Assembly (NCBI GenBank): GCA_964521425.1
Contig: CAZFRO010000011.1
Location: 13,534-77,533, forward strand
Origin: an uncultured bacterium
GTDB taxonomy: Bacteria; Joyebacterota; Joyebacteria; Joyebacterales; Joyebacteraceae
Direction: 5' to 3'
Length of the DNA: 64,000 nt
This document shows positions 3,662-44,084 of the stretch, in pieces. Position 1 is the stretch's first letter; every line of letters starts with the position of its first letter. The position numbers and the translations under genes are program-made. The notes below the pieces were generated by a model. The model worked only from the letters and a program-made list of their open reading frames with translations, searched no databases and was not told the DNA's origin.

Positions 3662-6600
3662 ATGACGCTAGGGGAGTTCTCCGTAAGGCAGCCTGTGCTG
3701 GTGAATCTCGTGATGATCGGGGTTCTCCTGATAGGGTTCTTCACGTTCTTCAGCATGCCTGCGGAACTCATGCCGAACGTCAGCATGGATGAGGCGGTCG
3801 TCTGGGTGGCCTACCCCGGGGTTGCGCCCGAGGAGATCGAGACCCTCGTGACGAAACCGCTCGAGGATGAGATTGACAACGTTGAAGATGTGGATCATGT
3901 GGTCTGCCGTTCCAGCGAGAGTCGTTGCGTGATCGCTGTCGCATTCACTCCCGGGCTTTCGGACGACGAGTTTGACAAGCGGATTCTCGACCTCAGATCG
4001 GCGGTGTCCGCCGCCGGATCCGCACTGCCGGATGACATCACCGACCCCGTTGTCATCCCTATCAAGATGGGCGAAGTAGCGCCCATCATGTCGATAAGCA
4101 TTGGTGGACCGGAAAGCGAGACCCTGCTTCGAGAGGTCGCCGAGGATCTCAGCGAGGAGTTGCTGGATCTCAAGCACATCGCTGATGTCGACATCGTTGG
4201 AGAGCAGGAACGCGAGATACGCGTCGAACTCGATGCCGCGCGACTGAAGGCGTACGGAGTTCCCATCGGCAGCGTTGTCGCTTCGCTGTCGGCCCGCAAC
4301 CTCAATGTCCCCGGGGGGACGCTCGATGCAGGTGATTCCGAGTATATCGTCCGCGCGATAGGGGAGTTCGAGTCGCTTGAGGACATCGCGAACCACGTTG
4401 TGCTCTCCGATCCCTTTGGGCGTCAGATCCGAATCCGCGATCTCGGTGCGGTGCGCGACACCCTTGCCGACAACCTCACGCTGGCTCGCCTCAACGGCGA
4501 GCGGAGCGTCACACTCTGGGTGATGAAGGAGGACGACGGCAGCGTAGTCAAGGTCGCTGCAAAGGCGCGGGACCTCGTGGCGGAGTTTGATTCCAGAGTC
4601 ACGGAGGACGTGAGCTTTGAGATCAGAAACGATGCGTCGACCGTCGTGGAGGACTCCCTCGCGGTTCTCAAACGAAACGGCGCGTTCGGCATCCTGCTTG
4701 TGGCCCTGACGCTCTTCATCTTCATCGGGGCCCGCAACGCGCTTCTCGCATGCATAGGCATCCCGTTCAGCTTCTTCGGCGCGTTCATTCTCATGAACGC
4801 GGTCGGCATGAGCATAAACACGCTTTCGCTCTTCTCTCTTGTGCTCGTTCTAGGGATGCTTGTCGACGATGCCATCATCGTCATCGAGAATATCTATCGT
4901 CACATGGAGATGGGCAAACCACCACGTGAAGCGGCCATCATCGGGGTTCAGGAGGTACAGGCCCCGGTCACGGCCGCTGTTCTGACTACGGTCGCGGCGT
5001 TCCTTCCGCTTCTGCTCATGAGCGGAACCTGGGGCAAGTTCATGGCGGTGATTCCGAAGACCGTCACGTTCGCGCTTCTTGTCTCTCTGATCGAGGCTCT
5101 GTTCATACTGCCGTCGCACATGGCGGACTTCAGCCGCGTCTCCCGCAGACAGAACACGTACCATCCGCTGTTCCTGACGCTTACGCGGAGATACGAGGTT
5201 GCGCTGAGGCACGTGCTGCGCAGGCGCTACCTCGCCGTTCTTGCCATCATCGTGCTGGCCGTGATAGCCATTGGTCTCGCGACCACTCTCGATGTCAGGA
5301 TCTTTGAGGACGAAGACATCAACCAGATCGAGGTCAGAGCCCAGATGAAGGTGGGGATGCGGCTCGAGGAGACAGACATCGCCGCCAGGAGGCTCGAGGC
5401 CATAGTCGCCTCGCTTCCTGCGGACGAACTTGAGGCGGTCGTCACGCGTGTCGGCTTCATGATCATGAACTACCGGGGCGAGCTGGCGTCCAACAACATG
5501 CAGATCAACGTCGATCTTGTGGACGCGGACTCGCGCCAGCGCTCTGACGTTGAGATCATGGATGCGCTCAGGAGCGAGATGTCGGAGGTCCCCGGCCTGA
5601 CATGGCTCTCACTGTCGAAACCTGTACACGGCCCCCCGACCGGCATGCCGGTCGAGGTCCGCATCAAGGGTGACGACCTCGATGTCTTGAAGGTGATAGC
5701 AGCCCAGATCAGGGTGAAGCTTGCGGAGTACCCCGGTGTCGTCGACATTGATGACAACGCCAATCCGGGGAAGTCCGAACTCAGGGTCACCGTCGACCAG
5801 GAGCGCGCATCGCTCTACGGGCTTACGGTCACGAGCATAGCCTCGGCGCTTAGGATCGGTTTCGAGGGCGTTGAGGCGACGAAATACAGAGGCGGTGGCG
5901 GCGACGAGGTCGATGTCGTTGTCCGGCTCAGGGAGCGGGATCGCGTCAACATGGATGACCTGAAGCGACTTCCGATCTCGACCAGCAGCGGAGTTGCCAT
6001 ACCACTCAGCAATGTCGCCCGGCTGACGATCGATGAGGCTCCGGCGGAACTGCACCGTCGAAACGGGGAACGCGTCGTCACAGTCACCGCCGGCGTGGAC
6101 GAGAACACGACTTCGACCGAGGTAAACCGCTTCCTGCAGACTGAGTTCTCCGATATCTCCGTCATGTACCCGGGCTATCGGCTTGACTTCGGAGGTGAGT
6201 TCCAGGCGACGCAGGAGTCGTTCGCGTCGCTGTTCCTGGCGTTCTTCGTGGCAATCCTCCTCATCTACGCGATTCTGGGTACGGAGTTTCAGTCGTTCAT
6301 CCAACCGCTTGTCATCATGTTCACGGTCCCCTTTGCCTTCATCGGTGTCGTTATCGGTCTTCTGGTCATGCGCTTCCCGCTGACCTTGACCGCCGGAATC
6401 GCCGTCGTCGCACTGGCCGGAGTCGTTGTCAACGACTCGATCGTTCTCGTGGATTTCATCAAGAACTCGCGTCTGAAAGGCGTGGATCGATGGGAGTCGG
6501 TCGTGAAGGCGGGGTGCATGAGGCTGCGCCCGATCCTCCTGACCTCGATCACAACCATCTTCGGAATCCTGCCTCTGGCGATGGGCTGGGGTGGCTCGTC

Positions 6601-6841
6601 CGAGAGCTGGGGGCCGATGGCCTCCTCGATTGCGTGGGGGCTGGCCTTTGCGACGGTTCTGACGCTCTTCGTGATTCCGGCTCTCTACTCGATCGTGGAT
6701 GATATCCGTGCGCGCTTCGGCAAGCTCCACGTCCCCGGCGGCAAGTCCCCAGAACTCACGCCCCACGTGGCGGAGGAGTTGGGTCGGTTGAAGCGGGGCG
6801 CAGCGCTATCGTCCAACGCGGATGAATCGGAGAGAGCATGA
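3662..6841 (+). CDS. Efflux RND transporter permease subunit (AcrB/CzcA superfamily).
   Basis: 1059 aa with 12 predicted TM segments in two 6-TM halves flanking large periplasmic loops. Conserved RND signatures are present (GMLVDDAIIVIENIYRH, VVNDSIVLVDFI). Confidence 0.9.
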   Translation: MTLGEFSVRQPVLVNLVMIGVLLIGFFTFFSMPAELMPNVSMDEAVVWVAYPGVAPEEIETLVTKPLEDEIDNVEDVDHVVCRSSESRCVIAVAFTPGLSDDEFDKRILDLRSAVSAAGSALPDDITDPVVIPIKMGEVAPIMSISIGGPESETLLREVAEDLSEELLDLKHIADVDIVGEQEREIRVELDAARLKAYGVPIGSVVASLSARNLNVPGGTLDAGDSEYIVRAIGEFESLEDIANHVVLSDPFGRQIRIRDLGAVRDTLADNLTLARLNGERSVTLWVMKEDDGSVVKVAAKARDLVAEFDSRVTEDVSFEIRNDASTVVEDSLAVLKRNGAFGILLVALTLFIFIGARNALLACIGIPFSFFGAFILMNAVGMSINTLSLFSLVLVLGMLVDDAIIVIENIYRHMEMGKPPREAAIIGVQEVQAPVTAAVLTTVAAFLPLLLMSGTWGKFMAVIPKTVTFALLVSLIEALFILPSHMADFSRVSRRQNTYHPLFLTLTRRYEVALRHVLRRRYLAVLAIIVLAVIAIGLATTLDVRIFEDEDINQIEVRAQMKVGMRLEETDIAARRLEAIVASLPADELEAVVTRVGFMIMNYRGELASNNMQINVDLVDADSRQRSDVEIMDALRSEMSEVPGLTWLSLSKPVHGPPTGMPVEVRIKGDDLDVLKVIAAQIRVKLAEYPGVVDIDDNANPGKSELRVTVDQERASLYGLTVTSIASALRIGFEGVEATKYRGGGGDEVDVVVRLRERDRVNMDDLKRLPISTSSGVAIPLSNVARLTIDEAPAELHRRNGERVVTVTAGVDENTTSTEVNRFLQTEFSDISVMYPGYRLDFGGEFQATQESFASLFLAFFVAILLIYAILGTEFQSFIQPLVIMFTVPFAFIGVVIGLLVMRFPLTLTAGIAVVALAGVVVNDSIVLVDFIKNSRLKGVDRWESVVKAGCMRLRPILLTSITTIFGILPLAMGWGGSSESWGPMASSIAWGLAFATVLTLFVIPALYSIVDDIRARFGKLHVPGGKSPELTPHVAEELGRLKRGAALSSNADESERA

Positions 6842-6875
6842 GCGAGACTTCCCCAGTGAGTGAATCGGAGAGAAC

Positions 6876-7808
6876 GTGAGTGAGACTTTCCCGACAGTGA
6901 CCGGCAGAGTACTAGCCTGCTTCCATGACGAGTGGGAGGTCGCCCTGAGCGGTGGCGACGTCATCCGCTGCCGTATCCGGGGAAAGCAATTCACGAAACT
7001 CCCGGACGGGCGGAAGCCCGTGGTTCCGGGAGACCTGGTCGAACTCAGCCTCCTGAGAGACGGCTCGGGCGTCATCGAACGCGCGCTTCCGAGGGAGACC
7101 GTCCTCTCCAGACTGCTTCCCGGGAGACGCAGGCCGGCCGAGCAGATCATCATCTCGAACGTGAAGCAGCTCGTGACCGTGGCATCCCTTGGGGCTCCGA
7201 GCCTCAACAGGCGCCTGCTGGATCGGTTCCTGATTATCTCGGAGGTGGCCGAGTTGCACTCGGTCGTTGTGTTCAACAAGACAGACCTCGTTCCCGAGAA
7301 GGAGTGGCGTCCGGCTGCTGCGGCCTACGAGGACGCAGGCTACGAGGTGATTCCCACGTCAGCCACGAAGGGCACGAATGTCGACAGGCTCGCGTCGGTG
7401 CTTGCAGGTACATTCTCCGTTCTTGCGGGTCCGAGCGGAGCGGGGAAGAGCTCACTTCTGAACATCATCAGACCCGGGCTTGGTCTCAGAGTGAAGGAAG
7501 TAAGCAGGAAGAGTGGAAAGGGCAAGCACGCGACGACCAACGTGACCGTATTTCGTATGGGTGATGAAACGCTCGTCGCCGACACCCCAGGCTTCCGCGA
7601 GCTAGGCTTCTGGAAGATACGTCCTAGCGAGCTGGACTACCTGTTTCCGGAGTTCCGTGATCACATCGCGAGGTGTCGTTTCAGAGGATGCAGTCATTCG
7701 CATGAGCCCGATTGTGCCATCAAGGAAGCCGTGGAGACCGGGGCACTGAACGCCGCGCGCTACGACAGTTATCTGAGGCTTCTCAAGGAACTGAAGGAGG
7801 GAGCGTAG
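6876..7808 (+). CDS. rsgA: Ribosome small-subunit-dependent GTPase A (RsgA/YjeQ).
   Basis: Circularly permuted GTPase motifs: VVFNKTDL, LAGPSGAGKSSLLN, DTPGF. C-terminal zinc finger CRFRGCSHSHEPDCAIKEAV. Confidence 0.9.
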   Translation: MSETFPTVTGRVLACFHDEWEVALSGGDVIRCRIRGKQFTKLPDGRKPVVPGDLVELSLLRDGSGVIERALPRETVLSRLLPGRRRPAEQIIISNVKQLVTVASLGAPSLNRRLLDRFLIISEVAELHSVVVFNKTDLVPEKEWRPAAAAYEDAGYEVIPTSATKGTNVDRLASVLAGTFSVLAGPSGAGKSSLLNIIRPGLGLRVKEVSRKSGKGKHATTNVTVFRMGDETLVADTPGFRELGFWKIRPSELDYLFPEFRDHIARCRFRGCSHSHEPDCAIKEAVETGALNAARYDSYLRLLKELKEGA

Positions 7809-7888
7809 GCCCTCGCAGGTCCACGCCTGACTCCACGGGCGCCCAATGCCCGACCACGGCGCGCCGCTCGCAGTGAGGAGGTGCTAGA

Positions 7889-9109
7889 TTGCAGGTCGTT
7901 CTCTATGAAGATGCCGGTACCAAGTGGTTTGGTCCGCTCACGCTTCTCCGGCCGGTCTTCGATCTGAGATGTGGATCGCTGCTCTTGAGGGAGAAACTCG
8001 AGGTCAGGAGGCCCGGTTGGGCGGTCAGTCTGCTTCCACGCCGGGAGCTTGCTCCACTGGTATCGGAGCTCTATCCGGGGCGAGGCATTGACGGTCTTCA
8101 GGATTCAGACGTACTGCTTCTGTCCGCTCGTGTGATCGTTACCGACGAGCTTCTGGCCGCCATCGAGGCCGAGTCGGCTGAAGCTCTTTTGACATCCGGC
8201 GGCGAGCCTGTCGGAGCGCTCCTCCGCGGAGGAACTGCTGAGAGAGTACGCGCGGTGGGTGAGGCGAACGGAGATCTGGGTGTGCTCGACATACCACTGT
8301 CTCGTGAGCTACCGGCCCGCGTGGTCTGTTACCCGTGGGAACTCGTGCGATTGACGGCCGAGGAGATAGAGGCTGACGCTGCGGTCTCAGGACGTTTGGG
8401 GACCATGGAGGGAGAGGTTCATCCTTCAGCACAGCTGATTGAGCCGGCCAGGATCTCGATAGGAGAGGGAAGCACGCTCGGTCCGGGAGTCGTGATTGAC
8501 GCGCGAACCGGTGCGGTCGTTGTGGACGCGAACGTCGAGGTGATGGCCAACGCTGTGATACTGGGACCCGCTTTCGTGGGCGCCGGATCTTCCATGAAGG
8601 TGGGCGCCAGGATCTACCCGGGCACGTCAATCGGCAGATCGTGCAAGGTGGGAGGTGAGGTGGAGGGATCGGTGCTTCATTCGTTCACGAACAAGCAGCA
8701 CGAGGGGTTTCTCGGTCACGCCTACCTTGGAAGCTGGGTCAACATCGGCGCCGCGACGGATAACAGCGACCTCAAGAATAACTACGGCGCCGTTCGGGTC
8801 GAACTGAACGGTGAGACCGTCGACACCGGACACACATCCGTCGGTGCGACGATCGGCGATCACACCAAGACCGCCATCGGGACGAAGCTGAACACCGGTA
8901 CTGTGATAGGCGTCTTCTGCAACGTGGTGAGCAACGGCTTCGCGCCGAAGTCCATTCCCTCTTTCTCTTGGGGGAACGGGGACGGCTTCGTCGAACACGA
9001 CATCGAGCGGGCGATCGCGACCGCCCGCATCGTCATGGCGCGACGCGGCGTGGACCTGACGGGGACGGAAGAGGCCGCCATCCGCGATGTTCACCGAAGA
9101 CGAAGATAA
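7889..9109 (+). CDS. Putative sugar nucleotidyltransferase/acyltransferase with a left-handed beta-helix (GlmU-like alternative family, TIGR03991-like).
   Basis: N-terminus MQVVLYEDAGTKWFGPLTLLRPVFDLRCGSLLLREKLE resembles the conserved N-terminus of the alternative GlmU-like family. C-terminal hexapeptide repeats (ARIYPGTSIGRSCKVGGEVEGSVL...). Confidence 0.6.
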   Translation: MQVVLYEDAGTKWFGPLTLLRPVFDLRCGSLLLREKLEVRRPGWAVSLLPRRELAPLVSELYPGRGIDGLQDSDVLLLSARVIVTDELLAAIEAESAEALLTSGGEPVGALLRGGTAERVRAVGEANGDLGVLDIPLSRELPARVVCYPWELVRLTAEEIEADAAVSGRLGTMEGEVHPSAQLIEPARISIGEGSTLGPGVVIDARTGAVVVDANVEVMANAVILGPAFVGAGSSMKVGARIYPGTSIGRSCKVGGEVEGSVLHSFTNKQHEGFLGHAYLGSWVNIGAATDNSDLKNNYGAVRVELNGETVDTGHTSVGATIGDHTKTAIGTKLNTGTVIGVFCNVVSNGFAPKSIPSFSWGNGDGFVEHDIERAIATARIVMARRGVDLTGTEEAAIRDVHRRRR

Positions 9110-12478: not shown

Positions 12479-15400
12479 ATGCGATCCGCACTCCTTGTCA
12501 CGTTGCTTATCTTCGCGACAACCTTGGCTTCGGCCCCGGCTCTAGCCGGGCCCGTCGCGCACACCGAACTGACCGCTGACGACATTGTGTTGGGACAGAC
12601 GAGGGGATTCGAGACCCTGAGCTTCACCGGCGGAAGGCGGCTGGCGGGTGAGGGGGAACCGGACATCCCGGCTCGTATCATCCACTTCGTGATTCCGGAT
12701 GGGATGACCGTGGGAGATCTCGTGATCACTGAGGGCGATGAGATCGTTCTCAATGGCACGCATGCGATCCATCCAGTCCAGACCGATGTTCCGATCGGCG
12801 AGAGCGCGCCGTGGGTCGAGCCCGACGAACGCATCTACGGGAGTGATCTCTCCTATCCTCCGAAGCGAGCCGTCTACCTCGGGGATGGATTCCTCGGCGG
12901 GTATCGCATCGCTACCGTCGCACTCTATCCTGTGCAGCTGAGGCCGCTGTCAGGACAGCTCGTGCTGGCGCCCGAGCTGACCGTCGAACTTAGTCTGGAG
13001 CCGTCCGATAGAAGAGCGGCGGCCCGAGAGAGAATCACCGCCACTTCCGACAGGCTCTATCGTCGTCTCATCGAGACCATCGTAGACAATCCTGATGAGG
13101 TGACTGTCCTCAGGAATGTGGGGACCAACGTGATCACCGGTCCGCTGAGTGGAGGGTTTGCGCCTCGGTACTCACCGTCACTCGAGGGTAGCCCCGTCGA
13201 GTACGTCATCGTCACCACGGACGAACACGCGCCGTATTTCCAGGAACTCGCTGACTGGAAGACGCAGAAGGGTGTGCCGGCCGTTGTTCGAACCGTGTCA
13301 TGGATCAATGCGAATTACCCCGGGGGGTGCGACACCGCTGAGCGCATACGGTTCTTCCTCCAGGATGCATACGCTCTGTGGGGGACGACATATGTGCTGC
13401 TCGGAGGAGACACGGAGTTCGTTCCCGTGCGGTACGGAAGAACGGCCTACTACGGTGGTGAGAGTATCCCAACCGACCTCTACTACTCGGACCTGGACGG
13501 TAACTGGAACGCCGACGGAGATGCTCTGTTCGGTGAGGGCTACAGAACCGAAGAAGAACCGGGCGATGGTGTTGATCTCTATCCGGACGTTTTCGTCGGC
13601 CGCGCTCCGGTGAGCAATGTCGTAGACGTAGAGGCGTTCCTCGACAAGTGCGAAGCGTACAGGGAGAGTCCCGTACCGCACTTCGTCGATCGTAACCTGT
13701 ACTTGGGAGAGGTGCTCTTTCCATACGACTGGGAGAGTGGACCGTACAGCCTTGATGGCGCAGCCGACATCGTCGAGCCCGGGTTGCCGTCCGTCCCCGG
13801 TCAGATCTCCAATGTCGCACTGTACGCGAACTGGTCTTCGTTTCCAGAATCCTATCCTATCAGCGCCGCGGCGGCTGCGGAATCGCTGGAACAGGGGTAC
13901 AACCTAAATGTCCACGTCGGCCACGGGAACAAGGACATCATGAGGGTAGGTGTTAACAACTACATCACGATGTCCGGCATGTCGGGTCTCACGAACGGCA
14001 TCGACAAGGCTGGGTTCCTCTGGCTGCTCGACTGTACATCCTCGGCCATCGACTTCGATTGCATAGCGGAGCGCGCCATCATCAATCCTACTGGTGGGGG
14101 CTTCGCCACACTGGGGCCGACCCGGTATGCTTTCCCCACGACGTGCCGCGACTACTACTGGGACTGGTTGGACCTTCTGTATGTCTCCGGATGCCAGGAG
14201 ATCGGACCTCTCTTGGGGATGACGACCACGCTTCACGCGAGCTTCGCGGAATCAGGTCGCGACAACACCGACAGGTGGACGCAGTTTTCCATGCTTCTGC
14301 TGGGTGACCCCGAGATAGCCATGAGAACAGTGCGTCCGAGGAACCTCTCGGTGGCCTTCTCTGGCGCCATGCAGGTTGGGGAAGATGGGATGACGTTCAA
14401 CGTGACCGACCCCGGTCTCGTGGAGGGCGCGAAGGTCTGTGTCTCCTCTTCGTCCGGGGATGTCTACGCCTACGGAACAACGGATGGCGTGGGTGAGGTC
14501 CACATTGATTTCACCCCGACTGTGACCGGCGTGCTCCAGGTCACCGTCACGTGCCCCAACTACTACGTCTTCGAATCAGAGATCAATGTGGTCATCGCGG
14601 CCGGAGCCTACGTACATCTCGCGGACGTGACCGTGGACGATGACGACATCGGAGGAAGCTCCGGGAACGAGAACGACAGGCCGGAGCCGGACGAGACCCT
14701 GGAACTTGACATCAGCGTCCGGAACGGCGGAATCGCAACGGCTTCCGCGGTCTCAGCCTTCATCTCATCAATCGATCCGTACATTGTGATCGAGGCGGAC
14801 TCGGTGTTCGTCGGTGATGTGGAACCCGGTGTGACTGCAGAGTTCCCCGCCGCCTTCCGGATCTTTGTCACATCCGACTGTCCGAACAACCACGACGCGG
14901 AGTTGACCCTGGACTTCTCGGAGGCAGGGAGAGCCACGTGGCAGGAGGAGTTCGAGGTTCGCGTCTATGCACCGGAGCTCGTTCACCTCTACACGCAGCT
15001 CGATGATTCAGTCGGTGGTGATGGAGACGGCATCCCCGAGTTGGGGGAGACCGTGACTCTCCTCCTCGACGTCTGGAATGAAGGCAACGGAGACGCGGAC
15101 GGGATCACCGGCGTGCTCAGCTACTCCGAGCCGGCCTGGGTCGGTTTCACGGACAGCACCGACGTCTGGGGAGATATCTCAGCCGGTACGGCTGCTCCCG
15201 GCCTCGATGGTATTGAATTCGAGATCCTCGGCCATCTCTCCGAGTACTTCGAGCTTCTGCTTGCCGACGAGTATGGCAAGACATGGACACAGCGCCTTGA
15301 TATCCACAGGCCTGATCCGCCAGACACGATCTTTGGCGATGTCGTGGGCACGACCATCAGTCTCAGCTGGGAGCAGAACATCGAGCCCGATCTCAGAGGA

Positions 15401-17212
15401 TACGATGTGTGGAGGAGCCAGAACCAGTCCGGCCCCTACGACGTAGCCAACACGGCGATCGTCGAGGGCATGTCGTATTTCGCTGATAGTGGATTGGATG
15501 AGAACACGCGCTACTACTACTATGTTGTCGCTGTGGACTCATCAGGGAACGTGAGCACCGCTTCCCCCGTGCTCAGTATCAGCACCAATCCGCCAAGTCT
15601 GTCGGGATGGCCGCTTGCCACGTCGGGGGGCATGTACTCGAGTGTGGCAGTCGCCGATCTCGACGGCGACGGTTCGAAGGAGATACTGGTCGCCTCCGAG
15701 CAGCTCTATGCGTGGCACGCGGACGGCACGGAGGTCCGGGATGGAGACGGCGATCCAAGGACAGGCGGCATCTTCGCAATCGATGGTCAGGGCGGATACC
15801 GCTGCACGCCCGCAGTCGGCGAGGTGGACGGCGACAGCGGTGTGGAGATCGTCGCGGCAGCCTGGGCCGACGTGGGGAGTGGCGATCCTGAGCACGAGGT
15901 GTTCGTGTGGAACGGGGAAGACGGCAGCGTGGTCTCGGGGTGGCCGGTTACGACCGGGAGGTTCTGCTGGGCCAGTCCGGCCCTCGCCGATCTCGACCAC
16001 GATGGGCGAAGCGAGATCATAATCCCCTGCGCTGACGGCAAGCTCTACTGCTGGAGCTACAACGGATCTGAGTTCATAGACGGAGATAGCGACCCGCTCA
16101 CAGTCGGCGTTTTCGCCGATCTTGGGAATCCCTATATCTACGCTTCCCCCGTGATCGCGGACATAGACGGTGACGGGGAACTGGAGATACTGCAGCCGGC
16201 CGCTACAGAGAGCGTCTACTGTTTCAATGCGGATGGCTCCAGAGTGCCGGGTTGGCCGATATCAATTGGGCTCAAGGCATACAGCTCACCGGCTGTCGGA
16301 GACGTTGATGGGGATGGCGATCTGGAGATCGCGATCGCCTCCCACACGTGGGATGTCTCGCTGTTCGATCATGAGGGGATCCCGCTCGCCGGATGGCCGA
16401 AGTCGATGGCGAACAATGGAGATTTCCCACCCTCACCTGTTCTTGCGGACCTGACCGGAGACGGATTCCTCGAACTGGTTCAGGTGGGCTCTGACGGCGA
16501 GATTATGATATGGGACTACCAGGGCAGCGCGATGAGCGGATGGCCGCAGTTGCTGGGCGGGAACGTGAAATCGAGTCCGGCGATCGCCAATGTCGATGCC
16601 GATCCGGATCTCGAGCTGATCGTAGGCAGTGATTCTGGAAAGCTGTTTGCCTTCGATCTTGATGGCTCGGTTCTGGACGGCTGGCCGATCCAGACGGGCG
16701 CCTACATCTACGGGTCTCCGACCGTGGACGATGTCGACGGAGACGGTGATGTCGAGGTCGTGGTTGGCGGAATGGACACCAAGGTGTATGTCTGGGACTG
16801 TGAGGGCGCTTACGACGGTGGCGCCAGTGTAGAGTGGGGGTGTTTCCTTCACGATCTGTGGCGGACGCAGCTCTATGGTTTTGAGATTCCTGTCGGGGTC
16901 AGCAACGATGATGTCGTAGATCTCGGTGGACGACTTCTGGAACAGAACGTCCCGAATCCATTCAACCCGCTTACGACGATCGAGTTCATTGTGCCGACCA
17001 CTGAGGGCAGCGCGCCCGTGACTCTCTCCATCTATACGGTTGGGGGAGCGGTTGTCCGCACGCTTCTGGATTCGCACGTGGAGCCCGGACGGCACGCGGC
17101 AGTCTGGGACGGCCGTGATGGACACGGCAGGCCGGTCGCATCGGGTGTCTACTTCTACAGGATTGCCGTCGGCGACAGGAGCGAGTCGAAGAAGATGCTG
17201 CTCATCAAGTAG
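12479..17212 (+). CDS. Giant secreted gingipain-family (peptidase C25, clan CD) cysteine peptidase with an FN3 domain, an 8-blade FG-GAP beta-propeller and a type IX secretion C-terminal sorting domain.
   Basis: Signal peptide. His-Gly...Ala-Cys catalytic dyad context NVHVGHGN (His at 13922-13924) and LWLLDCTSS (Cys at 14033-14035). FN3-like segment (RGYDVWRSQ...YYYYVVAVDSSGN). Eight repeats of the ADLDGDG-x-EIL type. C-terminal NVPNPFNPLTTIEF...IYTVGGAVVRTL...WDGRDGHGRPVASGVYFYRI matches the Por/T9SS CTD. Confidence 0.85.
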   Translation: MRSALLVTLLIFATTLASAPALAGPVAHTELTADDIVLGQTRGFETLSFTGGRRLAGEGEPDIPARIIHFVIPDGMTVGDLVITEGDEIVLNGTHAIHPVQTDVPIGESAPWVEPDERIYGSDLSYPPKRAVYLGDGFLGGYRIATVALYPVQLRPLSGQLVLAPELTVELSLEPSDRRAAARERITATSDRLYRRLIETIVDNPDEVTVLRNVGTNVITGPLSGGFAPRYSPSLEGSPVEYVIVTTDEHAPYFQELADWKTQKGVPAVVRTVSWINANYPGGCDTAERIRFFLQDAYALWGTTYVLLGGDTEFVPVRYGRTAYYGGESIPTDLYYSDLDGNWNADGDALFGEGYRTEEEPGDGVDLYPDVFVGRAPVSNVVDVEAFLDKCEAYRESPVPHFVDRNLYLGEVLFPYDWESGPYSLDGAADIVEPGLPSVPGQISNVALYANWSSFPESYPISAAAAAESLEQGYNLNVHVGHGNKDIMRVGVNNYITMSGMSGLTNGIDKAGFLWLLDCTSSAIDFDCIAERAIINPTGGGFATLGPTRYAFPTTCRDYYWDWLDLLYVSGCQEIGPLLGMTTTLHASFAESGRDNTDRWTQFSMLLLGDPEIAMRTVRPRNLSVAFSGAMQVGEDGMTFNVTDPGLVEGAKVCVSSSSGDVYAYGTTDGVGEVHIDFTPTVTGVLQVTVTCPNYYVFESEINVVIAAGAYVHLADVTVDDDDIGGSSGNENDRPEPDETLELDISVRNGGIATASAVSAFISSIDPYIVIEADSVFVGDVEPGVTAEFPAAFRIFVTSDCPNNHDAELTLDFSEAGRATWQEEFEVRVYAPELVHLYTQLDDSVGGDGDGIPELGETVTLLLDVWNEGNGDADGITGVLSYSEPAWVGFTDSTDVWGDISAGTAAPGLDGIEFEILGHLSEYFELLLADEYGKTWTQRLDIHRPDPPDTIFGDVVGTTISLSWEQNIEPDLRGYDVWRSQNQSGPYDVANTAIVEGMSYFADSGLDENTRYYYYVVAVDSSGNVSTASPVLSISTNPPSLSGWPLATSGGMYSSVAVADLDGDGSKEILVASEQLYAWHADGTEVRDGDGDPRTGGIFAIDGQGGYRCTPAVGEVDGDSGVEIVAAAWADVGSGDPEHEVFVWNGEDGSVVSGWPVTTGRFCWASPALADLDHDGRSEIIIPCADGKLYCWSYNGSEFIDGDSDPLTVGVFADLGNPYIYASPVIADIDGDGELEILQPAATESVYCFNADGSRVPGWPISIGLKAYSSPAVGDVDGDGDLEIAIASHTWDVSLFDHEGIPLAGWPKSMANNGDFPPSPVLADLTGDGFLELVQVGSDGEIMIWDYQGSAMSGWPQLLGGNVKSSPAIANVDADPDLELIVGSDSGKLFAFDLDGSVLDGWPIQTGAYIYGSPTVDDVDGDGDVEVVVGGMDTKVYVWDCEGAYDGGASVEWGCFLHDLWRTQLYGFEIPVGVSNDDVVDLGGRLLEQNVPNPFNPLTTIEFIVPTTEGSAPVTLSIYTVGGAVVRTLLDSHVEPGRHAAVWDGRDGHGRPVASGVYFYRIAVGDRSESKKMLLIK

Positions 17213-17283
17213 CGCGGCGATGCGTCGTGTTCGAAAGAGATGAAGATCGCCGGCCGGCGATCGCGTTCGGATCGATCTAAATA

Positions 17284-17314
17284 GAAGCGCCCGGGAAATA
17301 AGCCCGGGCGCTTC
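17284..17314 (+). terminator. Rho-independent-type terminator hairpin downstream of the peptidase gene.
   Basis: gaagcgcccggg-aaataa-cccgggcgcttc, a perfect 12-bp stem. Confidence 0.55.
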
Positions 17315-17431
17315 GTCGTGTCCAGCCGGATCCACAGCGTGAGTCAGCGTGGGATGCGGTCGAGTCATCCCACCGATCTCAGCAGCGCGCGAGAATCTAC
17401 AAACAGCCTATAGCATGGGCGTCTTTTTCAC

Positions 17432-17461
17432 TTGACAGCGTCAGGGGCGGACGGCTAGTAT
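17432..17461 (+). promoter_or_regulatory. Sigma70-like promoter of the mraZ/dcw operon (TTGACA-N18-TAGTAT).
   Basis: TTGACA at 17432-17437 and TAGTAT at 17456-17461, about 55 nt upstream of the mraZ ATG. Confidence 0.5.
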
Positions 17462-17468
17462 CCCGCGA

Positions 17469-17493
17469 GTGGGCTGAAGTGGGATGAAGTGGG
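17469..17493 (+). promoter_or_regulatory. MraZ operator: three direct GTGGG repeats spaced exactly 10 bp apart between the -10 element and the mraZ start.
   Basis: aGTGGGctgaaGTGGGatgaaGTGGGcc. This matches the TGGGN-repeat MraZ binding architecture described for the E. coli Pmra. Confidence 0.6.
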
Positions 17494-17517
17494 CCGGATC
17501 TTGCTCTGGATGTCCAT

Positions 17518-17982
17518 ATGACCTCTTTTCTGGGTAGATACATACACACGCTCGACGCGAAGGGTCGCCTCTCGATCCCCTCGAAGTTCAGGAAGGCTAC
17601 GGGGGAGATCTTCGTCCTCACGCTTGGACTCGATGGGTGTCTCTTCTTCTATCCCCGCGATGAGTGGCAGCGCGTTGAGAGTGATCTGCGCGGACTCTCC
17701 TTCACCTCCCGCAAATCGAGATTCTTCAAGCGGGAGATCGCGTCGCGAGCGTGCGAAGTCAGTGTGGACAGTCATGGGCGCATTGTCATCCCGCAGGAAC
17801 TCAGGGAGCTTGTTGGACTGGAGAAGGACGTGCTCGTGATCGGTGCGATAGAGCGCGTTGAGTTCTGGGATCCCAAGCGACACCAGAAGTACAAGGAGGA
17901 GTTCGGTCTCTCATACGAGGAGGTCGCCGAGACCCTCTGGGAGAACCCGGGTGACCTGACCGGCAACGGGGGGGAGGGGTAA
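17518..17982 (+). CDS. mraZ: Transcriptional regulator MraZ.
   Basis: MTSFLGRYIHTLDAKGRLSIPSKFR and a second DxxGR repeat (VDSHGRIVIPQELR). First gene of the dcw cluster. Confidence 0.92.
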   Translation: MTSFLGRYIHTLDAKGRLSIPSKFRKATGEIFVLTLGLDGCLFFYPRDEWQRVESDLRGLSFTSRKSRFFKREIASRACEVSVDSHGRIVIPQELRELVGLEKDVLVIGAIERVEFWDPKRHQKYKEEFGLSYEEVAETLWENPGDLTGNGGEG

Positions 17983-17985
17983 GAC

Positions 17986-18348
17986 ATGACCATCCTCCCG
18001 AGGGAGACGGAGAGGGCGACCGTACTCCACATGGCCGGGTCCATTGGAGGAGCGCGCGACCTCGGCCGGCTGCATCGACACCTTGCCGGCCTTCTGGCCT
18101 TGCGTAAGACGCGAATCGTCCTCGATTTCTCCGACGTGGATCACGTGGACTACCAGGACGCGGGAGAACTCGCTAAGGAGTTCGAATTCGTCCATTCGTA
18201 CCGAGGTGAATTGATGGTAGCCGGTCTGAGCCCATACGTGAGGAACATCTTGCTCCTCGCAGGACTCCACGGCTTCCTCGAGATGAGCACATACGGCGCG
18301 AACACATACATGGGGCCGGCATCTACCCACGATCTTCGAGCGAGCTGA
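17986..18348 (+). CDS. STAS-domain protein (SpoIIAA-like anti-sigma-factor antagonist fold) lacking the phosphorylatable Ser.
   Basis: VLDFSDVDHVDYQDAGELAKEFEFVHSYRGELMVAGLSPYVRNILLLAGLHGFLE aligns with the STAS consensus (vlDlsgvtfiDSsGlg...GgelvlvglspqvrrvleltGl). The DSSG Ser position is DYQDAG here. Lies between mraZ and rsmH. Confidence 0.6.
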   Translation: MTILPRETERATVLHMAGSIGGARDLGRLHRHLAGLLALRKTRIVLDFSDVDHVDYQDAGELAKEFEFVHSYRGELMVAGLSPYVRNILLLAGLHGFLEMSTYGANTYMGPASTHDLRAS

Positions 18349-18376
18349 CCGTACTCGCCCGTCCCGTTCTCGCCGT

Positions 18377-19354
18377 TTGCAGCAAAACGCCGCGTATCTG
18401 AAACAAAGCGAAGTGAGAATGCAGGCTCTGCATCTGCCAGTGATGGTTGCCGAGGTCATCGACTACCTCGTAACCCGCACGGATGGTCAGTATATCGACT
18501 GCACCCTGGGTGGTGGGGGGCACGCGAGTCGGATTCTCAATAATGCTCCAGCCGGCCGGCTCCTTGGTCTGGACCTGGACAGCACGGCATGCGACGAGGC
18601 CGAGAAGGTGCTCAAGCCGTTCGGAGAGAGAGTGGAGATCGCAGAAGGTAATTTCGCAGATCTGTCCGTACTCGCCGGCGAGCGGGGATTCGCCGGAGTG
18701 GACGGCATTCTCTTTGATCTTGGGTTCTCCTCCATGCAGCTCGACGATGCGGAGCGCGGATTCAGCTACAGCTTTGACGGACCGATCGATATGCGCCTGG
18801 GCAGAGACCACGGCATGAGCGCCTTGGGGCTCATCGCGAAGAGCGATGAGCGGTCGCTGTCTCAGATTCTCTACAGGTTTGGAGAGGAACATCGTGCTCG
18901 TCCCATCGCACGGGCCATCATCGAGGCTAGAGACGCGGGGCGATGCCAGACAACGGCGGAACTGGCAAACGCTGTGGTGAGCACTAAGCCCCGGAACCGG
19001 AACAAGACCCTGGCCCGTGTGTTTCAGGCGCTCAGAATTGCTGTCAACTCTGAACTCGACAACCTGCGCTCTGGCCTGGCACAGGCGGAATCACTCCTGC
19101 GCACGGGTGGAAGGGTCGTCGTTATCTCGTATCACTCGCTAGAAGATCGCATCGTCAAACAGCACTTCGTGAGGGCCGAGCGGCCGTGCGTCTGTCCGAG
19201 GGACCTTCCAGTCTGCGCGTGCGGGCGCAAGCCCACACTGCGCATTCTCACACGGCGCGTGGTTCGACCGCGCGACGTCGAGATCGCAGGAAACCCGAGG
19301 GCACGGTCGGCGAAGCTCAGAGCTGCAGAGAAACTGGCTCCGCACGAGAACTGA
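18377..19354 (+). CDS. rsmH: 16S rRNA (cytosine1402-N4)-methyltransferase RsmH (MraW).
   Basis: HLPVMVAEVIDYL...YIDCTLGGGGHASRIL SAM-binding motif. Position in the dcw cluster. Confidence 0.92.
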   Translation: MQQNAAYLKQSEVRMQALHLPVMVAEVIDYLVTRTDGQYIDCTLGGGGHASRILNNAPAGRLLGLDLDSTACDEAEKVLKPFGERVEIAEGNFADLSVLAGERGFAGVDGILFDLGFSSMQLDDAERGFSYSFDGPIDMRLGRDHGMSALGLIAKSDERSLSQILYRFGEEHRARPIARAIIEARDAGRCQTTAELANAVVSTKPRNRNKTLARVFQALRIAVNSELDNLRSGLAQAESLLRTGGRVVVISYHSLEDRIVKQHFVRAERPCVCPRDLPVCACGRKPTLRILTRRVVRPRDVEIAGNPRARSAKLRAAEKLAPHEN

Positions 19355-19444
19355 CCGGGCCGCCGGTCTGTCGGAGGCCATGAGGCGCCGGCAACCGGTC
19401 AGCCCGGGAAGACGTGGAACCAAGGCGGAGAATCAGATCCGGGG

Positions 19445-19846
19445 ATGAATGGAGGCACGAGGATCGTGAAGAAGCCTGGTCCCATCACACGACTAGTGAA
19501 CAGGGTGGGTGGACCACTTCACGCGAAGGGGCTTCTGATCTGGTGCGCCGTGCTCGTGACCGGCGTCCTCTGCATCTGGCAGCAGGTCTACGCCACGAGA
19601 CTCGCATCCGAGATCGATGAACTCCAGCACAGACGGGAATGCCTCAGGACGGAGATTGGGTTTCTGAGAATGGAGTGTGTGTCCCTCTCGAGCCGGGAGC
19701 GGATTCAGGAATACGCAGAGGACCGCCTCGGCATGCGTCATCCGAAGCCGGGCGAGATCATTCGCCTTGAGGATGCCATTATCAGTCGCACGATTCGGCC
19801 GGAGGACCTGGCCGCGGGGATCGACGATGCACATACCAACGGTTAG
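19445..19846 (+). CDS. ftsL: Cell division protein FtsL (single TM plus coiled-coil).
   Basis: 133 aa with one TM helix (LLIWCAVLVTGVLCIWQQV) followed by a leucine-zipper-like coiled coil. Sits between rsmH and ftsI. The start may be internal. Confidence 0.7.
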   Translation: MNGGTRIVKKPGPITRLVNRVGGPLHAKGLLIWCAVLVTGVLCIWQQVYATRLASEIDELQHRRECLRTEIGFLRMECVSLSSRERIQEYAEDRLGMRHPKPGEIIRLEDAIISRTIRPEDLAAGIDDAHTNG

Positions 19847-39011: not shown

Positions 39012-42000
39012 TTAGTCCGGCTCGATGCTCTTTCGGATGGCCGCGAGCAGGTTGTTGAACTCGTACGGCTTCTGGAGGAACTGGTACCCGCGGTCGCGGA
39101 TCTCTGTCCACTGTGACTTCTGGCCCGTGTAGCCGCTGCTGAGAAGGACGTTGATGTCCGGGGAGCGAGTCAGAAGCTCGTCCACAAGCGTGACCCCGCT
39201 CTTGCCGGGCAGAACAACGTCACTGAAGATGAGATCGAATCTCCCTTCCTCCTGGTCGAACAGCTCAAGCGCCTGCTCAGCACTCTCGGCGGCAACGATG
39301 TCGTAGCCGCTGTCCTTGAGCGCGCCCACTGCGAAGTCCCTTACCAGAGGCTCGTCCTCCACGAGCAGGATGCGTTCTCCGCGTCCCGACTCCACGATCT
39401 TAAGCGAAGCCTCATCCGACGTATCATCGGGCCCGGCATCCGTCGTCGGGATGTGAATGAGGAAAGTCGTGCCGTGGCCGACCTCCGTCTGAACCTGGAT
39501 CCATCCCTCGTGCTGGCGGATGATGCCGTAGGCGCCGGCAAGGCCAAGACCCGTGCCCTCGCCGCGTCCCTTGGTTGTGAAGAAGGGCTCGAAGATCCTG
39601 TCCACGACCTCGGGGGGTATTCCGGATCCGGAGTCCGTAACCGAGATGCAGATGTACTCCCCGGATGAGCAATCACCCTTGGACGGACAATCGTTCTCGC
39701 CCACCTGGATACACTTGGCGCCCACGGTCAGACTTCCTCCGTGCGGCATCGCATCGCGCGCGTTGACGACCATGTTGATGAGCACCTGTTCGATCTGCCC
39801 GCCGTCCACCTTGATACAGGGGAGACCGTCGGCGATATCCGTATGAAGCGCGATGTCCTCTCCGATGAGCCGCCTCATCATCTTCTCCAGGTCGGCGATG
39901 ATGCCGCCTGCGTCCAGGATCTTGGACTCGAGCGGCTGCCTGCGGCTGAACGCAAGAAGCTGGCCCGTGAGGTTGGCTGCTCGGTCGGCGCCCTTCTTGA
40001 CCTCGGTGATGTACGATCTGAGTGGGTTATCGTCCTCCATCTTCGCAAGTGCGAGATCCGAGTACCCGGTGATGGCTGTGAGGAGATTGTTGAAATCGTG
40101 AGCGACACCTCCCGCGAGCCGTCCGACGGCCTCCATCTTCTGCGCCTGCAAGAGCTGCCCCTGAGCCTCGGAGAGTTCCGCCAGGCTCTTCTCGAGTTCA
40201 CCGAGGGCATTGACCTTCCGCCACGATGCCGCTATCTGGTTCGCGAGCGCCGTGAGGATCGCCACATCGGCCCGTTTGAGATCGGGAGACAGCATCACCA
40301 GCGCGCCGAAGACCTCTCCCTCGGTGACAAGTGGGGCTGCGACGAGATGCTCGATCTTACCACGGTGACATGCATCCGGCGGGGACGTGGCTGCATCTCT
40401 GAATGAGTCTCCGACGACGCTTCGTCCATCCTCGACAAAGATGCTGCTCCCGTCGAGAAGCGTGGCCCTCGAGTCTGCCGGAATGAGCTCCGTGAGCGAT
40501 TGCGCCTGGGCCGAGTCGTCCAGCATCAGGGCTCTGGTGCAGGTGTCCAGATCCAGGAGCGAGGCGGCAGCCGTGTCGAGAACCTGCTTGGGTGTGAGAG
40601 CGCGAGCCATGGCAAGCGCGGCCGAGTTCACGGCGTGGAGCAGCTTCTCAGCTCGTTTCCGGTCAGTGATGTCTCTCAGAATCCAGACGTATGAGTGCGG
40701 TTTGCCATCGGGATCTGTCATCGGTGAGACAGTCATCTCACAGTCGAATGTTGTTCCGTCCCGGTGTCTATTGACGTGGGTTCCGTGCCAGATGCCACCG
40801 GAGGTCACGGCCTTGATCATCGCCGCGTGGATCTTGGCAGCAGAAGGCTCCGCGCTGAGTGTGTCGGGAACCAGACCAAGAAGCTCATCGTGATCGTAGC
40901 CGTACGTCAGCTCGGCTGCACTGTTGACGTAGGTGATCCTGAACTCGAGGTCCGTCACCATGATGCCATCGGAGACCTGGGTCGGGATCGAACTGAGGAA
41001 GCGCAGCTGATCCTCGGCCCGCCGGCGTTCGATCGACGTTCCGATCTGTCCGGACACGAACTTGAGCATTGCCAGGTCGTCTTCATCGAACTCGTCCGGA
41101 TTGTCATAGCTCTGGACCACGATCGCGCCGATGACCTCGCCTCGGGCGTGGAGCGGAACACCAAGCCAGATATCGCTGGGCGTGCCGATCATGTCGACCT
41201 CTCCGCGTGCCACCATTGCGTCGCCCGTCTCCTGGTCGAGCAGGAGGGCCCTGTCGTTGTGTATGACGTTGGCCGTGAGACTTCTCCCGGCCGGGAACGA
41301 TCCGTAGATACCCTGGTCGTGCTGATCCAGGAAGTAGGGAAGGGCAATGGTGTCGGTGTCGCTGTCGTAGAGCGCTATGAAGAAGTTATCGGTGTTCAGG
41401 ACCTTCCCCAGCTCCGTGTGGATCGTCTCGTAGAGCTCATCCATGTCCTCAGTAGTGTGCGCGGCGCTCGCGACCACGTAGGCGACCTGCTGCATCGCCT
41501 CGGCGCGCCTCATCTCGGTGATATCCATGCCTGAACTCAAGGTCCCCGTGATGGTTCCATCTGCGCCGTATATCATCGTGTTGTGCCAGGCCACCGTCCG
41601 TGTGTTGCCCTTGGCCGTCACAATTTCGTTCTCGTAGTGCGCCACGGGCACGATATCGCCCGCCATGAGCAGTTTGAACGCCCCTCTTACCTCCTCGCGG
41701 GAGTCCTCCGGCACGAACCAGTCGAACCAGTTCTGCCCGATCACCTCGTCCTCGCTCGACTCCAGCATCTCGCAGCCGCGTGTGTTGATCATCGTGACCA
41801 GGCCATCGGGTCCCAGGGCCACGAATGCCGCCTCAGCGAGGTCCAGGTAGCCCTGGGCGCGATCGCGGGCGTGCTTCATCTTCTCGACGGCCTCGAATCG
41901 GAGAAGGGCCGCCGCCAGCATCTCCGCCGCCGCTGCTATCGGTCCCATATCCTCCGGTGGAGGCGTCTTCATGGCGGAGGCCTGCTCGAACGAGAGAAAA

Positions 42001-43300: not shown

Positions 43301-43636
43301 TTGAAGTTCAAGACCAAGATGGAGGGAGACGTCGCGGTCGTCCATATATCCGGAAACCTCATGGGTGGAGCGGAGAGCGACGACGTGAGAAATGAGATCA
43401 AGCGGTTGCTCGACGACGGGGGTCGCAAGTTCATCATTGATCTCAAAGGGGTGCCGTGGATCAACAGTACGGGACTGGGGACTCTCATGGCCATCTACAC
43501 GAGTGTCCAGCGTGAAGAGGGTGCTCTCAAGCTGGCGCACGTTTCAGACAGGATCCGGAGCCTCTTTATGATCACCAAACTCCTGACGATCTTCGATACT
43601 CATCCGACACAGCAGGAAGCATTGGACAGCTTCTGA
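43301..43636 (+). CDS. STAS-domain anti-sigma-factor antagonist (SpoIIAA/RsbV-like) with a canonical phosphorylatable Ser.
   Basis: KFIIDLKGVPWINSTGLGTLMAIY matches the DxxxxxfiDSsGlg STAS core. 111 aa. Followed by an RsbW-like kinase gene. Confidence 0.8.
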   Translation: MKFKTKMEGDVAVVHISGNLMGGAESDDVRNEIKRLLDDGGRKFIIDLKGVPWINSTGLGTLMAIYTSVQREEGALKLAHVSDRIRSLFMITKLLTIFDTHPTQQEALDSF

Positions 43637-43661: not shown

Positions 43662-44084
43662 ATGTCTGAAGCAGCATCAGGAGTTGAGGAGCTCGTCCTC
43701 CCGAATGAACTGGATGTTCTGGGACAGGTGGACTCGCTGGCCGGCAAGTACGGGAAGTTGGCGGGTTTCGACGACGGTCCTCTCATGGAGATTGCGATCG
43801 CCGTTGTCGAGGCGGTGACCAACGCCGTCGTGCACGGAAACGACTTGAGTGAGACGACGCAAGTCATCGTCAGGTTTGAATGGTCACCGGGAACATTCAA
43901 GGTGATAGTTCACGATGAGGGGGGCGGTTTCGATCTCGACAAGGTCTGCGATCCAACTGATCCCGAGAGATGCATGGGGACTTCGGGTCGCGGCATCTAC
44001 ATCATGCGCGAGGTGATGGACTCGGTGGTGTTCGAGATGGGGAAGGGTACGGGTACGACCCTCACGCTTGAGAAGGCGGTCTGA
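43662..44084 (+). CDS. Anti-sigma regulatory factor, Ser/Thr protein kinase (RsbW/SpoIIAB-like, HATPase_c).
   Basis: N-box AVVEAVTNAVVHGN, VIVHDEGGGFD G1 box, GRGIYIMRE. 140 aa. Immediately downstream of the STAS gene. Confidence 0.8.
   Translation: MSEAASGVEELVLPNELDVLGQVDSLAGKYGKLAGFDDGPLMEIAIAVVEAVTNAVVHGNDLSETTQVIVRFEWSPGTFKVIVHDEGGGFDLDKVCDPTDPERCMGTSGRGIYIMREVMDSVVFEMGKGTGTTLTLEKAV

Follow-up and report, generated by a model that had tools for sequence, protein, structure and literature searches.

A STAS gene with tyrosine at the former phosphorylation site lies between mraZ and rsmH in Candidatus Eisenbacteria and other uncultured lineages

In a 64,000-nucleotide (nt) stretch of contig CAZFRO010000011.1 from an uncultured bacterium (assembly GCA_964521425.1, positions 13,534 to 77,533; the whole stretch is called the window below), a gene for a 120-amino-acid (aa) protein with a single STAS domain is located between mraZ and rsmH in the gene cluster for division and the cell wall (dcw). 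There is very little doubt in our minds that it belongs to an unnamed and previously undescribed orthologous subfamily, here called dcw-STAS, which is recognized by His53, Tyr56, Tyr84 and Ala92-Gly93 (window numbering) together with its fixed position between mraZ and rsmH. We are just as confident that the same slot is held by such a gene in Candidatus Eisenbacteria, in metagenome-assembled genomes (MAGs) of Desulfobacteria and in several other deep uncultured lineages. Residues and address go together. A metagenome scan seeded with one high-G+C branch gave 80 loci with both types of STAS gene and so had a built-in control. All 32 loci with His53 and Tyr56 (HxxY) were in mraZ/rsmH context, 27 of them with both genes and 5 cut by the contig end on one side, whereas none of the 42 loci with the canonical DS[STA]G was, 26 of these with room on both sides.

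The mraZ-STAS-rsmH locus

The genes of the locus and the parts of the STAS gene are as follows.

17518..17982, forward strand: mraZ (154 aa); Pfam MraZ 6.7e-32; TIGR00242 122 bits against a cut-off of 98
17973-17977, forward strand: GGAGG Shine-Dalgarno sequence of the STAS gene, in the 3' end of mraZ, 8 nt 5' of the ATG
17986..18348, forward strand: dcw-STAS gene (120 aa), ATG to TGA
17986-18291, forward strand: STAS core, residues 1-102
18292-18345, forward strand: disordered tail, residues 103-120
18419..19354, forward strand: rsmH (mraW), 16S rRNA m4C1402 methyltransferase; Methyltransf_5 1.4e-101; TIGR00006 310 bits
19445..19846, forward strand: ftsL; Pfam FtsL 5.5e-9

The mraZ stop codon (TAA, 17980-17982) is followed by GAC and then by the ATG of the STAS gene. 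A spacer of 70 nt leads to rsmH, whose start is ATG 18419 and not TTG 18377, as indicated by the N-terminus conserved in alignments. Genes for a PBP3-type transpeptidase (PBP, penicillin-binding protein) and then for mur ligases follow 3' of ftsL in the window. The region is rich in G+C and crowded with overlapping open reading frames (ORFs) on both strands, and the STAS ORF therefore needed independent support. The original prediction, which was made from the letters and the ORFs, had placed a STAS protein between mraZ and rsmH, within the dcw operon and only 3 nt after the mraZ stop, and had named a STAS profile search as a check. The gap is exactly 3 nt in the sequence, the flanking genes matched their families as listed, and the protein passed the gathering cut-off (22.6 bits) of the Pfam STAS profile (PF01740) with a score of 32.0 bits and E = 1.1e-7, the match running from position 5 to 98 of the 106 in the profile. 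For the window protein, TIGR00377 (27.7 bits, cut-off 53.45) and TIGR02886 (21.3 bits, cut-off 114.75) scored under their cut-offs.

An AlphaFold2 model of the window protein, built on 18 homologues, had a mean local confidence (pLDDT) of 82, with values of at least 90 over residues 1-100 and below 50 in the tail, and a pTM of 0.73. The predicted order of secondary structure elements was beta-beta-alpha-beta-alpha-beta-alpha-alpha. In a Foldseek search, the top PDB matches were SpoIIAA in complex with SpoIIAB (1th8_B), RsbV with RsbW (6m36) and TM1442 (1vc1), each with a probability of 1.00 and a TM score of about 0.7. We are close to certain that the ORF is a genuine gene and that its product is a single-domain STAS protein folded like SpoIIAA/RsbV.

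Conservation in Candidatus Eisenbacteria

The order mraZ-STAS-rsmH-ftsL was found in 29 of 29 Candidatus Eisenbacteria loci (22 GTDB species); the pattern-based scan for such loci returns carriers only. A scan of one genome per GTDB species gave 22 loci, and those that had a taxon name were Candidatus Eisenbacteria. Furthermore, a search of 5.8 billion proteins returned 17 close homologues, all of 116-126 aa. The position of the STAS start was conserved in 26 Eisenbacteria sequences, and a purine-rich GGAGG/GAGGAG stretch was retained 5' of it. The median ratio of nonsynonymous to synonymous substitution rates (dN/dS, Nei-Gojobori) was 0.26 for residues 2-102 and lay between 0.08 and 0.2 in most close pairs, while the tail (the last 18 residues) evolved almost neutrally with a median of about 0.95. 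The STAS domain is under purifying selection, and the gene is functional and no recent insertion. Conservation at the same position in relatives had been named beforehand as a further check, and it was found in every one of these loci. The idea of an insertion peculiar to this genome did not survive, since the gene is present in all 29 Eisenbacteria loci and the same slot is filled elsewhere.

The gene directly 5' of mraZ in the window (12479-17212) encodes a 1577-aa protein with a C25 (gingipain-like) peptidase domain and its propeptide, FG-GAP/beta-propeller repeats and a FlgD_ig/CHU_C-like C-terminal domain of the type IX secretion-like kind. A C25-peptidase neighbour upstream of mraZ was also kept in three distant Eisenbacteria loci (L001, L002 and L005).

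The wider dcw-STAS subfamily

When 1.84 billion cluster representatives were searched exhaustively with a profile, the Eisenbacteria proteins formed an isolated cluster at 209 bits, below which, after two fragments, the scores were 83 bits or less. Most of the next-best small matches carried V-x-H-x-x-Y where the DSSG loop would stand, and their strand 4 was followed by G-x-S-x-Y. Such distant relatives show about 25-30% identity. We looked up the genomic context of eight outgroup members. One had no record, and all seven returned contigs had mraZ and/or rsmH adjoining the STAS gene: the complete order mraZ-STAS-rsmH-ftsL-PBP-murE was seen in three (P0024, P0028 and P0179), the gene lay between the C-terminal half of MraZ and the N-terminus of RsmH in P0037, it overlapped the mraZ stop in P0026 and P0031, and rsmH was downstream of it in P0021. 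P0179 is annotated as coming from a Desulfobacteria MAG, and other members come from MAGs labelled "Deltaproteobacteria" and "Pseudomonadota". Beside the Desulfobacteria MAGs, a STAS gene holds the dcw slot in at least six other deep lineages. The carriers are diverse, with nine STAS clusters at 50% identity, G+C contents of 0.40-0.74 and neighbouring RsmH proteins that are 36-50% identical between lineages.

The metagenome scan contained two further dcw-embedded loci, a variant (L086) and a partial one (L072). In L086 (2980-3306), as in P0186, Tyr replaces His53 (VRYVSYM), and the L086 gene is still between mraZ and rsmH. All members of the subfamily came from MAGs or metagenomes, a taxon name exists for just a few of the loci, and no cultured carrier was found among them. 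NCBIfam holds no model specific to dcw-STAS; the generic TIGR00377 alone matches, and some outgroup members pass its cut-off, for example P0179 with 55.2 bits. We found no mention of a STAS gene in the dcw cluster in the literature searched, papers on dcw synteny included.

Other peculiarities were seen as well. In P0033, a further variant of the subfamily, an N-terminal zinc-ribbon domain is fused to a STAS domain of His/Phe type. On a 110-kb ENA contig (L031) from an outgroup lineage with dcw-STAS, the called gene after ftsL (6150-8411) encodes a 995-aa fusion of a PBP transpeptidase with a MurE-type Mur ligase, which is either an unusual gene fusion or an artefact of gene calling. In the P0037 lineage (L034, 364-608), the mraZ-STAS spacer measures 245 nt and is rich in short repeats (gtgcaaagtgcagaatgaag... 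/ ...tttacactttgaactttgcactttgcaatttaca).

Signature residues at the former phosphorylation site

The residues that set the subfamily apart are concentrated in two short segments.

18136..18165, forward strand: signature 1, residues 51-60, V-D-H53-V-D-Y56-Q-D-A-G, which replaces the canonical phosphorylation loop F-M-D-S-S-G
18229..18243, forward strand: signature 2, residues 82-86, S-P-Y84-V-R, at the beta4/alpha3 junction; invariant in Eisenbacteria

The window protein reads D55-Y56-Q57-D58-A59-G60. In profile alignments to three solved antagonists, D55-Y56-Q57-D58 stood opposite D-S-S-G of B. subtilis SpoIIAA and D-S-A-G of TM1442, and Tyr56 took the column in which DS[SA]G has its phospho-acceptor Ser. 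The loss of the canonical phosphorylatable Ser, which the original prediction had read from the sequence, was thereby confirmed. However, its suggestion that the replacement might be phosphomimetic found no support: the acceptor column holds an invariant aromatic Tyr and not an acidic residue, and the residue after it is Q, R, H or K in Eisenbacteria, in no case acidic. A comparison of 55 unique context-verified dcw members with 34 canonical STAS controls gave the following columns.

Position 53: dcw members H 98%; canonical controls F/Q/Y
Position 56: dcw members Y 100%; canonical controls S 100%
Position 84: dcw members Y 96%; canonical controls P/R/K
Position 92: dcw members A 87%; canonical controls T/V
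Position 93: dcw members G 98%; canonical controls R/K

The window protein has all of H53, Y56, Y84 and A92-G93. It also has the core residues G18, D47, G74 and G80, which dcw-STAS shares with proteins of the SpoIIAA/RsbV type.

Putative promoter and coupling to mraZ

Upstream of mraZ, two putative control elements were recognized.

17432..17461, forward strand: predicted sigma-70-like promoter of the dcw (mra) operon, TTGACA-N18-TAGTAT, 10/12 consensus positions
17469..17493, forward strand: three GTGGG boxes with 10-nt periodicity, putative MraZ binding repeats, just 3' of the -10 element

The promoter, a consensus match only, was the sole promoter-like site within 17200-19500, and no promoter- or terminator-like site was seen in this interval between mraZ, the STAS gene and rsmH. 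Similar GTGGG/GTGGT repeats occur 5' of mraZ in four other loci (L032, L033, L035 and L036). GTGG repeats are the operator of MraZ, through which it represses its own operon (White et al., 2022, bioRxiv). Many other lineages have the STAS start overlapping the mraZ stop (-4 or -1 nt). From the geometry of the junction, we infer that the STAS gene is co-transcribed with mraZ and translationally coupled to it. In the window, the two genes share a reading frame with only TAA-GAC between them. Readthrough of the mraZ stop into STAS was rejected, since the frames differ in relatives, for example in L001, and it is no conserved feature.

Conserved nucleotide blocks around the STAS stop codon

In Eisenbacteria, two short blocks near the STAS-rsmH junction were frozen at the nucleotide level.

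18340..18350, forward strand: block 1, GCGAGCTGACC (Ala119-Ser120-TGA-CC), 11 nt, identical in 26/26 Eisenbacteria sequences
18390..18398, forward strand: block 2, (C)CGCGTA(Y)C, in the STAS-rsmH spacer; CGCG invariant, the following TA in at least 90%

Block 1 occurs exactly once in each of the 29 loci. All 26 proteins end with Ala-Ser-stop despite the almost neutral tail before it, and A119 is GCG and S120 is AGC in every one of them, whereas every other invariant residue uses 2-5 synonymous codons. The conservation of block 1 sits in the DNA, since it covers synonymous positions, the TGA and two bases beyond. The distance from the start of block 1 to block 2 is 50-53 nt, in most cases 51, and another 23-30 nt, in most cases 27-28, lead from block 2 to the rsmH ATG. 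Block 1 is specific to Eisenbacteria: L034 has GCGAGCTAA, and the other lineages end differently.

Several explanations of the blocks were tried and rejected. A C-terminal "AS" as a protein motif of the whole subfamily fails, as it is confined to Eisenbacteria and L034 (RAS-stop). A fusion of STAS to RsmH by frameshift or UGA-C readthrough is excluded by the frame of rsmH, which is 0, 1 or 2 across loci, and by spacer indels that are not multiples of 3. With regard to a conserved RNA structure in the spacer, RNAalifold gave only a trivial 3-bp pairing of invariant bases without covariation, and the spacer had no Rfam match. Block 1 is no dispersed repeat or operator, as it occurs once per locus and its near-matches in the window are at chance level. 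The two blocks do not form the -35 and -10 elements of a sigma-70 or extracytoplasmic function (ECF) promoter either, as a gap of 40 nt exceeds the spacing of such elements and the promoter search marked no site there.

Two resemblances to 16S rRNA were noted. CGAGCTGAC (18341-18349, in block 1) is the exact reverse complement of GUCAGCUCG at 1064-1072 of 16S rRNA (E. coli rrsB); 3.5% of shuffled 11-mers reach a match of 9 nt, which makes this a post hoc lead and too weak for more. The complementary stretch sits just upstream of the gene for a 16S methyltransferase. After the stop, CGCCCGTC (18356-18363) repeats, in sense orientation, the 16S rRNA site that RsmH targets (C1402 region). It was found as 7-8 nt in 13 of the 26 Eisenbacteria loci (two subclades), was absent in the others and was matched by 1.9% of shuffled spacers, a weak lead as well.

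Comparison with known STAS systems

The SpoIIAA/RsbV antagonists (PF01740; TIGR00377) are likewise single-domain proteins (about 115 aa), have the beta-alpha fold in common with dcw-STAS and gave its best structural and sequence matches. However, dcw-STAS has an invariant Tyr for the acceptor Ser and loops rebuilt at H53, Y84 and A92-G93. It adjoins no kinase or phosphatase gene, its neighbours being mraZ and rsmH, and the sole RsbW-like gene of the window lies at a distance of 25 kb, paired with a canonical STAS gene of its own. We did not file dcw-STAS in the family of phospho-regulated antagonists, because the window protein falls short of the curated score and lacks both a Ser/Thr acceptor and the linkage to a kinase.

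By analogy, dcw-STAS appears most like a constitutive STAS adaptor. MlaB sets a precedent for a partner other than a kinase, and RsfA sets one for antagonists that lack the Ser switch. MlaB is the STAS accessory subunit of the lipid transporter MlaFEDB and a constitutive binder of the non-kinase ATPase MlaF. It is different from dcw-STAS in its operon and its partner, and the two have no signature in common; an MlaB structure (6xbd_K) was a weak Foldseek match at rank 44, the window protein had no mlaB match, and 7 of 60 subfamily members touched the mlaB_1 model (NF033618) weakly. RsfA (Rv1365c) of M. tuberculosis is reportedly a non-phosphorylatable anti-anti-sigma factor of UsfX that works without a Ser switch; cysteines are said to make it redox-regulated, and its gene has no link to dcw. 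The UsfX-RsfB complex (8ih8) was among the Foldseek matches. In Bacillus, SpoIIE and SpoIIAA couple partner switching to the division septum via an FtsZ-bound PP2C phosphatase and a phosphorylatable SpoIIAA. This sets a precedent for a tie between STAS-based signalling and cell division, but the dcw-STAS locus encodes nothing of that kind. The described MraZ-RsmH (MraW) module has the same operon, promoter and MraZ boxes as the locus studied here, but it consists of two genes, and here a third conserved gene stands between them.

Possible role of dcw-STAS

Tentatively, and with somewhat less than even confidence, we propose that dcw-STAS serves as a binding module that needs no phosphorylation, is co-translated with MraZ and has MraZ or RsmH as its target. 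Transcription of the gene would start at the one MraZ-controlled promoter, and its translation would be tightly coupled to that of MraZ. Because of the shared promoter and of this coupling (Shine-Dalgarno sequence inside mraZ and a 3-nt gap in the window, overlaps of -4 or -1 nt elsewhere), the amount of STAS protein should track that of MraZ. As the Ser switch is lost and no kinase or phosphatase gene lies beside it, a classical phosphorylation cycle would not regulate it. The docking face of the SpoIIAA type, rebuilt with His/Tyr/Tyr, may bind a protein encoded next door, with MraZ as the favoured partner and RsmH as the alternative. Overproduction of MraZ blocks division in several species, and to our knowledge it is not known how the activity of MraZ is controlled. 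According to White et al. (2022, bioRxiv), co-expression of mraW relieves the toxicity of MraZ in E. coli, and the part played by MraW/RsmH "remains unclear". It is for these reasons, the block in division, the missing account of its control and the counteraction by mraW, that MraZ is preferred as the partner. The STAS protein could then modulate the repression by MraZ of the mraZ-rsmH-ftsL-pbp operon, as a kinase-free "partner switch" on the master regulator of the division operon.

Several points weigh against this proposal. Adjacency and translational coupling are circumstantial for any physical partner, and we know of no interaction between a STAS domain and a protein of the AbrB/MraZ type in any system. 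Among the longer matches, no fusion of an HxxY-type STAS to MraZ or RsmH was found. That H53, Y56 and Y84 lie on one face is inferred from their loop positions in the predicted secondary structure and from the SpoIIAA-SpoIIAB complex, and a ligand pocket would be an equally good reading of the conserved His/Tyr/Tyr patch. The carriers-only scan gives no frequency of the gene within Eisenbacteria. Furthermore, the window itself encodes an RsbW-like kinase that could bind dcw-STAS, together with a canonical STAS gene.

43301..43636, forward strand: canonical single-domain STAS gene (111 aa); PF01740 59 bits; NSTG site, reading WINSTGLG
43662..44084, forward strand: RsbW/SpoIIAB-like GHKL serine kinase / anti-sigma factor (140 aa); HATPase_c_2 75 bits

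These domain matches agree with the original prediction, which had described a canonical STAS and kinase pair about 25 kb downstream. Head-to-head with the pair lies a gene for a 1301-aa hybrid histidine kinase (39012-42920, reverse strand) with three PAS, three GAF, HisKA, HATPase and receiver domains, which may be the sensory input of this downstream partner-switching module. Among the scanned ORFs adjacent to the pair, no PP2C phosphatase was found.

The pair, which the original prediction had named as a possible interaction partner, leads to the first alternative, which we hold to be unlikely: dcw-STAS would be a kinase-insensitive antagonist or decoy of an anti-sigma factor, which binds the RsbW-like kinase (43662..44084 or a paralogue) and is not switched off by phosphorylation, so that expression of the division operon would set a floor for the release of the cognate sigma factor. 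Its best sequence and structure matches are indeed anti-sigma antagonists (TIGR00377 and the SpoIIAA, RsbV and RsfB complexes), and a high-G+C outgroup branch retains Asp and Gly at the site (D-Y-R-G against D-S-S-G). RsfA of M. tuberculosis is a precedent for a non-phosphorylatable antagonist. However, the subfamily keeps company with mraZ/rsmH and not with kinase genes, as the called genes of the dcw loci include no HATPase_c_2 protein, and the kinase at 43662..44084 already has a canonical antagonist of its own beside it. In dcw-STAS, the docking loop has been rebuilt (H53, Y56, Y84 and G93), and TIGR00377 gives the window protein 27.7 bits where 53.45 are needed. Moreover, with canonical STAS genes in dcw context in 0 of 42 cases, an antagonist role leaves it unexplained why the HxxY type alone is tied to mraZ/rsmH. 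This strict coupling (32/32 against 0/42) suggests, at least as strongly, a partner encoded next door.

It is still less probable that dcw-STAS is a small-molecule sensor, in which His53, Tyr56 and Tyr84 (with Arg86 in Eisenbacteria) would form a pocket for a nucleotide or an anionic metabolite. The ligand, such as an alarmone or a cell-wall precursor that is linked to a nucleotide, would be reported to the division operon. Such a sensor would be compatible both with the proposed binding of MraZ or RsmH, as its upstream input, and with an antagonist of an anti-sigma factor. Some STAS domains do bind ligands, such as SpoIIAA and Rv1739c, which bind GTP, and the STAS domain of YchM, which binds acyl carrier protein, and the family-specific His, aromatic and Arg residues of dcw-STAS are concentrated in the pair of loops on either side of the former phosphosite. 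However, no nucleotide-binding motif is recognisable in dcw-STAS, and Arg86 is not conserved outside Eisenbacteria.

We consider it improbable that the switch was kept with another chemistry, that is, by modification of Tyr56 (or His53) through, for example, tyrosine phosphorylation by a bacterial tyrosine kinase (BY-kinase) or nucleotidylylation. Tyr stands exactly in the phospho-acceptor column in 100% of the 55 context-verified members, as such a switch would have it. Nevertheless, Phe takes its place in about one tenth of the wider His-motif representative matches (their genomic context is unverified), which suggests an aromatic contact and not a hydroxyl acceptor, and no tyrosine kinase gene is linked to the locus. 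Finally, a nonfunctional STAS ORF, whether one that arose by chance in G+C-rich DNA or an insertion in decay, would fit the many spurious overlapping ORFs on both strands and the almost neutral last 18 residues, but it is refuted by the comparative data and practically ruled out by the Pfam score over the cut-off, the confident fold, the dN/dS of 0.26, the conserved start and Shine-Dalgarno sequence, the presence in 22 GTDB species and the same slot filled in other lineages.

Significance

The dcw-STAS proteins widen the STAS repertoire by a whole subfamily with Tyr in place of the phospho-Ser and with rebuilt docking loops, whose signature predicted the genomic context perfectly in the metagenome scan. 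They currently bear the names "anti-anti-sigma factor" or "STAS domain-containing protein" and deserve a family model of their own. The pair mraZ-rsmH is among the most conserved gene pairs of bacteria, and dcw-STAS gives a handle on the relation of their products and on the control of MraZ. Taken together, the observations allow a joint reading, to which we give only limited credence. Several uncultured phylum-level lineages would have added a dedicated third component to the near-universal MraZ-RsmH module, namely a STAS protein that works without phosphorylation, binds MraZ (or RsmH) directly and gates the control of the division operon by MraZ. In Eisenbacteria, there would also be a cis element (GCGAGCTGACC with CGCGTA 51 nt downstream) that controls rsmH/ftsL. 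If this is true, dcw-STAS would be the first protein known to regulate MraZ, and it would represent partner switching that needs no kinase.

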